A stretch of DNA of 64,000 nt, from positions 128,001 to 192,000 of the forward strand of contig OY968764.1 of the NCBI GenBank assembly GCA_963695335.1, read 5' to 3'. Made by a program: the position numbers. Of this stretch, positions 21,001-24,000 are shown piece by piece; the stretch's first letter is position 1; each line of letters opens with the position of its first letter. The stretch comes from an uncultured bacterium. Lineage in GTDB: Bacteria > Babelota > Babeliae > Babelales > Vermiphilaceae.

Positions 21001-24000
21001 ATCATCCTGAGCCTGTTGAAGGGTTAAGCGCTTAATTCTTCAACAAGTTCAGAATGAGCGCAATAAGAACAAAATTTAAGGCTAATAAAATCATGAAAAA
21101 AATACGTATTGGCGTCCTGATGGGCGGCAAATCATTGGAAAAAGAAGTATCTTTTAACACCGGCAGAACGGTATGTGACTATATTGATACAACGCAATAT
21201 ACAACGGTTCCACTCTATCAAACAGGTTCAAAAATATATCTGTTACCGTGGCACTTTTTACATCGTGGCAAAACAACAGATTTTGAACATCGCTTACATA
21301 ACGAAGCAGAATATATTGCATGGGACGATCTTAAAAATTATGTAGATTTTATCTATATTGCTCAACATGGTCGCTATGCTGAAGATGGCACATTGCAAGG
21401 CTTTTTAAATATTCTTGGCATCCCTTATCTTGGTTCCAATGTTTTTGCAAGTGCATTGCGCACCGATAAAATTATGCACAAAACATTTTTAAATAACGCT
21501 GGCATTGCAACTCCAAAATTTGTTGCTGTTGAACCATATGAGATTGATAACTTTGAAAAATATAAAAATAATATTCTTAAGCAACTTGAAAATCTTTATC
21601 CACGCGCTCGCCCTGAACTTGTTGAAGAATTAAGCGCTCAAAGATATCCTTCGACAGGCTCAGGACGAGCGCACAAGAACAAAAATAACACACCTGATAT
21701 CAATGATCTTTTCGTTGTTAAACCATTTAACGAAGGCTCAAGCCTTGGTATTTCCATTGTTACCAAAGATAATCTAGAAAACGCACTCAAAAAAGCGTGC
21801 TACATTGAACCTGGCAAAAAAAAGCGTGTACTTATCGAAGAAAAAATTACCGGCATGGAATTCACCTGCATCATTTTAACTGATCATAAAACTGGCGAAC
21901 TTTTTGCGCTTCCTCCAACAGAAAGTGTTTCTGATGAAGAAGTTGGTTTTTTTGATTATGAACAAAAATACATGCCAGGAAGAGGTATAAAACGCACTCC
22001 AGCACGTTGCAGTGATGAAATAACAAAACATATTCAAGAAACATGCATACACGTCATGCAAACATTAGAATTTGATACAATGTGCCGCATTGATGGGTTT
22101 CTAACACATGATAACACAATTGTTATTATTGATCCCAATACACTTTCTGGGATGGCACCATCAAGTTACATTTTTAACCAAGCAGCAGAAATTAATATGA
22201 GCCCTGCGCAACTTGTTAACTATATTATTGAAACAGAACTACACCGCTATAACCTCATAACCACAGATATGAACAATACAACATCAGAAATATCATCACT
22301 CATTCAAAAAATTCGTGTTGCCATTTTACTCGGTGGTGCATCAAATGAAAAAGAAACATCACTCGATTCTGGCCGCAACGTCTTTTACAAATTATCGCCA
22401 CACAAATATGATCCTATCGCAGTTTTTGTGAGCGACGCATTAGAACTGTATATCTTGACACAATCACAACTGGTGCGTAATTCAACAAAAGAAATTATTG
22501 AACTGTTACAACCGTCACAAAAAATTAAATGGAGCGATTTATCTGCTATTGCAGACTTTGTATTTATTGGGCTCCATGGTGGTGAAGGTGAAGATGGTTC
22601 TGTGCAAGGTACATTAGAAATACTTGGCATGCCATATAACGGATCATCTGTGCTTGCGAGCGCGCTGTGTATGAATAAATATAAAGCGAATGAGCTGCTT
22701 GCTGCGCACGACTTTAATGTACCTAACAATATTTTGCTAACAAAACATCAATGGGATAATTCTTTATCTCAATCTAATTCTTACTGCGCTCGTCCTGAAC
22801 TTGTTGAAGGATATCCTCGAGCGCTCGAAAATATTTCCCCCGCTCCCCCTGAGTGCCACGATAGTGGTGTATCGAAGGGTTACGAGCGAATAAAAGAAAT
22901 CACAACAAAATTATCATATCCATTAATAGTCAAACCGCACGATGATGGCTGCAGCGTGATGGTGCAAAAAGTAACCAATGATGAAGAATTAATCGTGGCA
23001 ATAGAAAATGTATTACAAGAAAAAGATGCAGTGCTCATAGAAGAATGTATCACCGGCATGGAACTCACTGTTGGAGTTATGGGTAATCAACATCCCCGCG
23101 CATTGCCACCAAGCCAAGCAATTTCTTTAAGTGGTGTACTTTCTATAGAAGAAAAGTTTTTGCCAGGCGCTGGTGAAAATCAAACACCTGCACCACTACC
23201 ACAAAATGCATTAGAATTTGTGCAACGCACTATGGAACGTGCATTTACAACGTTGCAATGCAAAGGATATTCACGTATTGACTGTTTTTACCAAACAGCC
23301 GAGCAAAGCCCAACCAAAAAAGAACGGGTAATTATTTTAGAAAACAACTCATTGCCTGGATTAACACCTGCAACATGCTTGTTCCATCAAGCAGCTGAAA
23401 TTGGTTTAAAACCGATGGATTTTCTGGATCAAATAATTATGCTGGGATTTGAAGAACATAGACCTGCAGTCATCAATTCTTCCTTTCGCGCTCATTCTGA
23501 ACTTGTTGAAGAATAAATCCGCATATACGATAAAAAAGCAGCTACCTGTTTTAGTAACAGATCGCTGCTTTTTTTATTAAACTACTTTTTCTTATTGACC
23601 AGATACTGGTACGTTACTCAATACATATCTAATTTGTTCAAGTTCTTTTTGCTGCTTCTGCAAAGAAGTATATTTTCTATACATTCCATAAAAAGCAATT
23701 GCTGGAGCAATAGTATAAACCAATAAAGGAAGACCCCAATCAATATATTTATTTATATTTTTAGAAGGTCTTAGTAAAAAATTACCAATATCATAAGCTA
23801 AATCACCAACATGAGCATCCCTGCGAATGGTATATCCAGCCCATGTTGACGCCTCTATAACAGGATTTAATAAAGCAGCTATCCAATAAGGCCATGTTGA
23901 CGATTGATTAGTCGCTTGTATTTCCTGCGCAAGGAAAGCCTCTCTCTTCTGTAAAATGCCAGCCAATTCTTTGCTCATAAACGGACGCTTGGAAAAATCA

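Follow-up and report, generated by a model that had tools for sequence, protein, structure and literature searches.

The single-contig genome of this uncultured bacterium (G000; 1,366,684 bp, G+C 35.7%) is populated by a short tagged hairpin repeat, and a small GIY-YIG nuclease gene bracketed by units of this repeat co-varies with the repeats within the genus, within the family and across phyla. An initial annotation had described any transposase for these repeats as unknown, a statement that this association supersedes. The preferred reading, to which a probability of roughly two in three is assigned, is that the repeats belong to a mobile nuclease cassette of 380-490 bp that spreads via nicking and host repair, some serving as its terminal recognition sites and others being derivatives without the gene. 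Copies also lie in frame within genes, including the D-Ala-D-Ala ligase gene (ddl) of the window, the 64,000-nucleotide stretch of DNA analysed here.

One tagged hairpin unit in several arrangements

A strict pattern search recovered 245 units from the genome, compared with 0-1 per shuffled genome (10 shuffles). Profile searches with nhmmer gave 203 merged loci covering 14.1 kb (E<=0.01; no matches in the reversed genome), and 233 loci covering 20.4 kb when a fourth model was added at E<=0.3 (one control match), bearing out the abundance first reported (206 loci, 15.4 kb). The commonest G+C-rich 14-mers occurred 40-48 times. Each unit opens with a CGYTC tag; an arm of five bases, the dinucleotide GA and a closing base then lead into the loop, beyond which the mirror image follows. 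The stem has 8 positions counting the G.A pairs, and the loop measures 5 nt in 172 of the 245 units. The tag was CGCTC in 181 and CGTTC in 64 of the strict units, for which the search required CGYTC; the top k-mers gave the same tag without that constraint.

Pairing was assessed on 183 five-base-loop copies gathered without any pairing requirement. Stem positions 2-5 were paired in 167, 167, 170 and 180 copies, respectively, with four distinct pairs at position 3 (103, 27, 22 and 15 copies) and a closing pair of G-C in 107 and A-T in 61, showing that the structure is conserved by compensatory change. GA lay opposite GA in 165 copies. Tandem G.A pairs are stable in single-stranded DNA, and in this unit they are possible on one strand only. 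Since ViennaRNA folded both strands alike (-9.6 and -9.4 kcal/mol), any strand specificity would stem from the invariant G.A pairs only.

The repeats had initially been divided into types A, B and C. Rather than separate families, these are different arrangements of a single tagged unit, which occurs as monomers, as tags-out or tags-in dimers and in loop-extended forms: the type B loop is lengthened by a nested hairpin, while types A and C are distinguished by their tags and tails. The 168 clusters included 90 monomers, 41 tags-out dimers and 31 tags-in dimers. Dimers were type-pure in 70 of 72 cases, and types A and C together supplied 178 of 252 units. In 25 of the 27 type A tags-out dimers the two arms were fused at a common AGCGC, which is what deletion of a gene between them would leave. 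The following copies were located in the window, in addition to those within ddl and a glycosyltransferase gene that are listed further below (strand given where assigned):

3964..4178: three type B units, a tags-out dimer and one more (profile search and sequence)
20079..20186, minus strand: composite unit whose loop contains nested repeats of two other types (read from sequence)
20244..20269, plus strand: type A monomer 3' of an oligoribonuclease-like gene (window sequence)
20998..21062: type A tags-out dimer 5' of ddl (DNA fold z -5.2)
36551..36618: type C tags-in dimer, intergenic (window sequence)
50313..50449: type B tags-out dimer (window sequence)
61654..61734: mixed A/C tags-in pair (window sequence)

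The placement of units relative to genes bears on whether the hairpins are kept for a role in RNA, as terminators or mRNA stabilisers, or their peptides are kept as functional domains. Units lie nearer to gene ends than to gene starts (median 70-78 vs. 123-167 nt), and a G.T wobble occupies stem position 1 in 101 of the 183 copies, both of which would suit such a role. However, no gap-type preference was found (28 of 195 convergent, 30 of 194 divergent and 98 of 844 co-directional gaps), sense and antisense units were equal in number, and Rfam returned no match for the window or L001. The lack of gap-type or sense bias argues for a DNA-level element, and retention for RNA or peptide function is considered highly improbable, also in light of the coding copies.

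In-frame copies in ddl and other genes

The copies within genes of the window are as follows:

21093..23516, plus strand: ddl, an 807-aa ORF with two Ddl halves, hosting two internal inserts and a terminal unit
21603..21673: Ddl insert 1, a type A tags-out dimer, in frame, adding about 35 residues with its flanks
22785-22891: Ddl insert 2 as a whole, in frame
22787..22812, plus strand: first unit of Ddl insert 2, a type A monomer (window sequence)
22841..22880, plus strand: second unit of Ddl insert 2, type B, its loop lengthened by a nested hairpin (window sequence)
23489..23514, plus strand: type A unit forming the final Ddl codons, immediately before the stop (window sequence)
38305..38438: insert of 44 codons in a GT4 glycosyltransferase (gene 37729-39009), made of two type C units and a nested element

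The ddl ORF is the sole full Ddl match in the genome; Pfam Dala_Dala_lig_N and Dala_Dala_lig_C each matched it twice, and NCBIfam TIGR01205 scored above its cut-off. The ddl starts of congeners align with position 21093, and an ATG at 21054, within the upstream dimer, is probably not the true start. The two in-frame inserts had been reported before and are upheld here; the terminal unit and the upstream dimer are additions. Excluding the inserts, the dN/dS of ddl against congener G048 was 0.11 at a dS of 0.72, indicating that the gene is kept under selection. The insert that the two genomes have in common is nearly identical despite this divergence, so the repeat has seemingly been refreshed in place.

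In an alignment of ten congeners, site 1 was occupied in G048 (in frame) and in G065 (frame-shifted) and was vacant in the other eight. This corrects the earlier claim that insert 1 is confined to this genome and its nearest species. The G065 gene is frame-shifted at a second place as well, so that error and decay are indistinguishable. Site 2 carried other repeat-derived inserts in six of the ten congeners and none in four, in agreement with the initial annotation. These inserts vary in frame and strand among congeners and their peptides are unrelated; the Ddl C-termini likewise vary. Both sites correspond to the equivalent loop in each half, preceding the strand with the ATP-binding lysine motif. 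In the predicted Ddl model (mean pLDDT 66, from 8 sequences), residues 170-203 (insert 1) and 559-594 (insert 2) appear as low-confidence coil, although the shallow alignment also depresses confidence at the inserts.

Across the genome, 25 loci fell within the longest ORFs. Fifteen of these lie 45 codons or fewer from the ORF start and are probably mis-called starts, a caution that had already been raised for inside copies near gene starts; two are weak matches near C-termini, leaving eight internal. With a further copy in FtsK, which the profile models did not catch, nine loci in seven genes are securely internal: two each in Ddl and DprA and one each in the GT4 glycosyltransferase, MutL, an M23 peptidase, phosphoglycerate kinase and FtsK. 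In-frame internal copies therefore do exist, but the 28 loci originally counted inside genes were not reproduced. The nine represent about 4% of 233 loci in a genome that is 82% coding, a strong depletion in genes.

Other host genes were also compared with congeners. The previously described 44-residue GT4 insert sits between the gene's two Pfam domains and is missing in 5/5 aligned congeners. The phosphoglycerate kinase unit (26 nt) is also missing in 5/5 congeners; it took the place of a short run of pyrimidine-rich sequence, leaving the gene a net five codons longer. The two DprA inserts and the FtsK insert were all confirmed. Contigs from three low-depth DNA sets did not span the inserts. 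At DprA site 2 the unit is absent from 4/4 congeners (aligned without G062, where the gene is split across two contigs), as had been claimed, but two of the four hold remnants of other repeats at this site. The in-frame inserts are read as tolerated loop passengers, and in-frame insertion is itself an already known phenomenon. The finding that one Ddl loop holds inserts in six congeners could point to functional peptides, but the differences in frame and strand, the unrelated peptide sequences and the depletion in genes all count against it.

A nuclease gene bracketed by the repeat

Three stand-alone small GIY-YIG genes were found in the genome. Two are Slx1-like and lie beside a different repeat; the third, outside the window, is bracketed by units:

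C1:565524-565808, minus strand: GIY-YIG gene, 95 aa, bracketed by inward-facing units

About 20 nt separate the end of the left unit from the nuclease ATG, and the right, inverted unit starts a few nucleotides past the stop; only 7 of 1234 called genes in this genome are bracketed by facing units. The catalytic Tyr, Tyr, Gly, Arg, His and Glu are invariant in 10/10 aligned nuclease sequences, and the predicted model adopts a GIY-YIG fold (pLDDT 87). Among the matches listed, the closest named homologues were Dependentiae/Babeliales records; the initial annotation assigns the genome to Babelota.

Within the genus (11 genomes), 20 such genes were found in 9 genomes, with up to 4 copies each, some of them broken. 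They occupy 18 places, and only two pairs have a common neighbour. Flank mapping to G000 covered 17 loci (all except L138, L144 and L153), and for 12 both flanks were located together: 7 loci (6 places) were repeat-free, 4 held gene-less units and 1 was unclear. At one gene-less site, the full type A cassette of G067 has a type A dimer as its counterpart in G000. The cassette has therefore inserted at many unrelated places. Measured at 19 loci (L152 excepted), cassettes span 378-492 bp from tag to tag, and the arms match each other over 29-98 nt in 17 of the 19. The 20 nuclease proteins fall into three starred clades, in correspondence with end types A, B and C, which were assigned with the proteins in view rather than blind; enzyme clade thus co-varies with end type. 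G000 retains only the B-type enzyme, though most of its units are A and C.

Movement of the repeats in trans as MITEs by a resident transposase, either IS200 TnpA or the IS481-like ORF of the window, with the nuclease as trapped cargo, would account for the inverted arms, for the direct repeats of about 11, 20 and 60 nt that flank three cassettes (none was obvious by eye at three others) and for the unrelated second gene between the units at L150. Three identical IS200 copies also indicate recent activity. However, the IS200 genes possess ends of their own and have no unit closer than 1 kb, and no unit lies at the IS481-like ORF; both transposases were rejected as movers because they are not flanked by units. 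Additionally, dimers showed no fixed target duplication (mean 2.9 vs. 2.2 by chance), and a gene trapped by chance would not belong to a single protein group across phyla, nor form clades that track end type. Transposition in trans is accordingly regarded as very unlikely.

The association extends to the family, where the median forward repeat count across 69 genomes was 37 with the gene (n = 30) and 2 without it (n = 39); the p-value of 4e-9 is overstated because related genomes are not independent. Exceptions include 6 repeat-rich genomes without the gene, among them G048 (98% complete), and 7 of the 30 gene-bearing genomes, which had fewer than 10 forward matches. A tag motif lay within 400 nt of 15/17 family loci of this type, compared with 0/10 Slx1-like and 1/5 Ssn-like loci.

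A GTDB scan confirmed at least 588 relatives, and neighbourhoods were counted on the best 80 loci, several of which end at a contig edge or have the gene fused to the next gene. These 80 represent Babelota, Alpha-, Beta- and Gammaproteobacteria, Chloroflexota, Nitrospirota, Thermodesulfobacteriota and others. A facing unit was present 5' of the gene in 55, 3' in 43, on both sides in 32 and on either side in 66, with units on both sides in 0/1600 shuffled controls; cross-phylum spread, initially offered as a lead only, is thereby substantiated with named records. Tag motifs were about 25 times denser within 200 nt of the gene than beyond 500 nt (5.2 vs. 0.21 per kb). In five proteobacterial genomes, the CGYTC motif was near 6/8 genes of this type and 0/13 Ssn-type genes. 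Considering proteins alone, repeat-coded peptides were recognised in 22 of 104 homologues with extensions, compared with 1 in a reversed control. One Legionella genome has the gene without an expanded repeat (5 vs. 7 in the control). Relatives of the single nuclease were not found on viral contigs, and a plasmid search with the cassette DNA gave no match.

The repeat-rich genomes that do without the gene would fit a nuclease that recognises the hairpin but works for its host and, like SsnA, restricts or shapes single-stranded DNA entering the cell, with the repeats and cassette moved by another enzyme or by recombination between copies. The only cellular role shown for SsnA in the accessible sections of its report is to lower transformation by NTS-bearing DNA (PMC11893778), DprA is encoded in G000, and the near-unchanged Ddl insert shared with G048 points to copy-to-copy conversion. 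Such a host function would, however, predict a fixed gene position rather than 18 places in 9 genomes with broken copies, and the six repeat-free places in G000 offer no homologous landing pad. This explanation is therefore considered unlikely, though less so than transposition in trans.

Known systems and a possible route of spread

The nearest described system is that of the Ssn nucleases (CDD cd10448) and their NTS/SRM hairpins (Chenal et al. 2025, PMC11893778), of which the G000 nuclease-hairpin pair is a cousin with another enzyme group and another hairpin. According to the accessible sections of that paper, the two systems have in common a single-domain gene of about 95 aa between inverted 5'-tagged hairpins, which also occur in hundreds of copies with few inside genes; binding of SsnA to its tagged hairpin is confined to single-stranded DNA, and the cut is made a few bases upstream. 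The G000 nuclease has the catalytic Tyr, Tyr, Glu set of Ssn and shares 34-41% identity with Ssn-type proteins, but the spacing of its first two tyrosines is 10, compared with 11 in Ssn. The tag is CGYTC here and HGTC there, and the G000 stem contains the invariant tandem G.A. The published SRM pattern had 0 matches in G000, and exact SRMs were near none of the genes of this type in the family (17/17) or in the five proteobacterial genomes with both systems (8/8), where 4/13 Ssn-type genes had exact SRMs on both sides. A tree of these five genomes (97-99 columns; long UvrC-type proteins, two fragmentary loci and SsnA not included) placed the four doubly SRM-flanked proteins in an Ssn-type clade (support 99/96) that excludes the G000 nuclease group, whose own branch was weakly supported (89/54 and 77/75). 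Those sections also present the mobility of the Ssn cassette as a hypothesis, as once mobile, whereas filled and empty cassette sites are seen in this genus.

Other GIY-YIG proteins are close as well. UPF0213/YhbQ structures (PDB 1ZG2 and 1YWL) were the only solved profile matches (E 1e-22 and 2e-19), and UPF0213 structures were the top Foldseek matches (38-40% identity), with the same tyrosine spacing as the G000 nuclease. E. coli YhbQ is only 26% identical to the G000 nuclease and has a long branch, and the supports for a grouping with YhbQ and the solved UPF0213 proteins were 93/73 and 77/75; set against the 34-41% identity to Ssn-type proteins, this makes a UPF0213-like label provisional. 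A repeat pairing for UPF0213 was not reported in the literature searched, and neither UPF0213 nor cd10456 is mentioned in the searched supplements of PMC11893778. The CGYTC tag and its pairing were likewise not described in the literature searched, which covered few subscription papers; the Ssn report came nearest.

As for the repeat itself, the CGTC-tagged REP superfamily, which includes Rickettsia RPE-4 and RPE-6 and Neisseria dRS3 (Di Nocera et al. 2013, PMC3733652), is described in the accessible sections with a 5' tag, a stem of 8-9 bp, a loop of 4-5 nt, inverted dimers and occasional in-frame genic copies, for example in DNA repair genes. The G000 unit agrees in its tag position, 8-bp stem, 5-nt loop, inverted dimers and genic copies (MutL and DprA). 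It differs in having five-base CGYTC instead of a tetranucleotide tag (CGTC, TGTC or CCTC), in its tails, which are not of the CCA type, in loops often lengthened by nested hairpins and in the frequency of tags-in dimers (31, compared with 41 tags-out), which were called rare. Six G000 repeat-coded peptides are absent from supplement 3 of that paper, and its accessible sections report that a dedicated enzyme for these REPs was not found.

The resemblance to the Rickettsia elements RPE-1/2/3 (PMC10969869, PMC3767692), as far as the available sections of these papers describe them, lies in insertions that keep the reading frame at exposed positions of conserved proteins and in sites filled by different elements per species. 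The RPE-like label proposed initially is apt for this effect, in-frame repeat-coded peptides in permissive loops, but overstates its frequency: nearly half of the copies of coding RPE families lie in ORFs (PMC10969869), compared with about 9 of 233 here. Furthermore, RPE-1 is about 150 bp long with a conserved peptide, while the G000 unit is 26-53 nt and its peptides vary by frame and strand. With only 9 internal loci, the G000 repeat resembles the CGTC REPs more than RPE-1. No RPE-named model appeared among the family matches listed for the host proteins, which for Ddl and GT4 were the best 25 of 50 and of 43, respectively.

REP/REPIN elements and their RAYT enzymes (Bertels and Rainey 2011, PMC3116915; PMC3733652) provide a parallel in the accessible sections: a small enzyme gene between its own tagged hairpins, enzyme-specific repeat groups and non-autonomous inverted doublets. 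RAYT, however, is an HUH tyrosine transposase that cuts and rejoins, unlike the hydrolytic GIY-YIG nuclease of G000, and REPtrons are described as not self-propagating, whereas cassettes of the G000 type are found at many places. None of the three PF01797 genes in G000 is flanked by units. Overall, the repeat is a tagged-REP variant tied to a distinct, widespread and apparently mobile GIY-YIG cassette.

Under the cassette reading, a unit, the GIY-YIG gene and an inverted unit would form the mobile element. By analogy with SsnA, the nuclease probably binds the tagged hairpin in single-stranded DNA, at a replication fork or in incoming DNA, and would cut within the pyrimidine-rich flank, a few bases to the 5' side of the tag. 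The seven positions of this flank from -2 to -8 are 79.5% pyrimidine, a fit that is only suggestive; monomers showed no replichore bias (43 leading, 47 lagging). Because a GIY-YIG domain hydrolyses and does not ligate, the joining must come from the host. As the weakest step, the free ends would be joined at new places by host break repair (microhomology or template switching), giving variable short deletions or duplications and no fixed target duplication. The variable junctions might reflect such repair, a tentative assignment at a congener divergence (dS ~0.7) too high for base-level placement of junctions; at dimers, extended inverted flanks gave no signal. Counting against the scheme, a tags-out element would be cut once per strand, which by itself does not account for the release of a whole cassette. 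Tags-out dimers would arise when the gene is deleted between the cassette arms, and genic insertions that are in frame and in tolerant loops would survive as passengers.

More broadly, and with confidence somewhat short of even, the cassettes may represent a class of mobile elements of about 400 bp whose sole gene is a GIY-YIG single-strand nuclease, without recombinase or transposase. Such an element would nick beside its own hairpin and be copied by host repair, spawning non-autonomous hairpins and diverse enzyme-end pairs per genome and at times picking up cargo genes; across many phyla it would also be the origin of fused genes and of RPE-like inserted peptides. The mover of CGTC-type palindromes and of RPE-like protein insertions has so far been left open in the accessible sections of PMC3733652 and PMC11893778. 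Since this genus unites filled and empty sites, three enzyme-end pairs and protein insertions, the question becomes directly testable. If these enzymes do cut single-stranded DNA, the sequence-specific single-strand nucleases would gain a second, widespread group that the published Ssn motif does not cover.

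Second hairpin family and nested elements

Two small Slx1-like GIY-YIG genes of the studied genome (single contig, C1), L002 and L003, are both bordered by a second family of hairpins, the motif of which gave 100 matches vs. 17 in the control. A tRNA gene lies directly 5' of one of the two, and the pairing of an Slx1-like gene with this hairpin family recurs at other GIY-YIG loci from genomes of the same family.

C1:205106-205318, Slx1-like gene L002
C1:895128-895328, Slx1-like gene L003

Hairpins of the second family, together with a third element present in 27 copies, are also nested in the loops of CGYTC units, the tagged hairpin repeats (window 20079-20186; C1:881984-882069; nuclease loci L139 and L141), and the in-frame inserts in FtsK and the GT4 glycosyltransferase are likewise among the units with nested elements.

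Ddl and other genes of the window

The D-Ala-D-Ala ligase gene Ddl (window 21093-23516) is duplicated internally within a single ORF, the two halves of which are separate ORFs in the congeners G061 and G067; the metal-binding motif reads D-P-N in the first half, whereas it reads E-N-N in the second. No CGYTC units flank the transposase-like ORF of the window, which by its appearance we take to be of IS481 type. The three identical IS200 TnpA genes elsewhere on the contig carry their own ends.

Window 14356-15369, transposase-like ORF
C1:369218, 574578 and 1166633, IS200 TnpA genes

Judging by sequence, other genes presumably include a PemK/MazF-like ORF (25847-26209), two tandem P-type ATPase genes (26223-31371) and pieces of a LigD-like ligase (34926-36544). 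Paralogues are arrayed in tandem at 57100-64000.

Nuclease fusions, cassette arms and neighbouring genes

At sphingomonad loci (L065, L073, L075, L081, L082, L115, L118, L127, L130, L132, L133), the nuclease is joined via a repeat-coded linker to a downstream ORF, which, judging by sequence, we assume to be RNA methyltransferase-like; at one locus, L126, the fusion partner is presumably a tRNA deaminase-like ORF.

In the cassettes, in which inward-facing CGYTC units bracket the GIY-YIG nuclease gene, the inverted arms extend past the tags into non-repeat sequence by 69 nt at L147 and 20 nt at L148, which is the pattern that fold-back copying of the adjacent DNA would leave. Beside the nuclease cassette at L150, in congener G065, units enclose an unrelated gene for a membrane protein, whereas the corresponding site of the studied genome is empty; this gene is possibly captured cargo.
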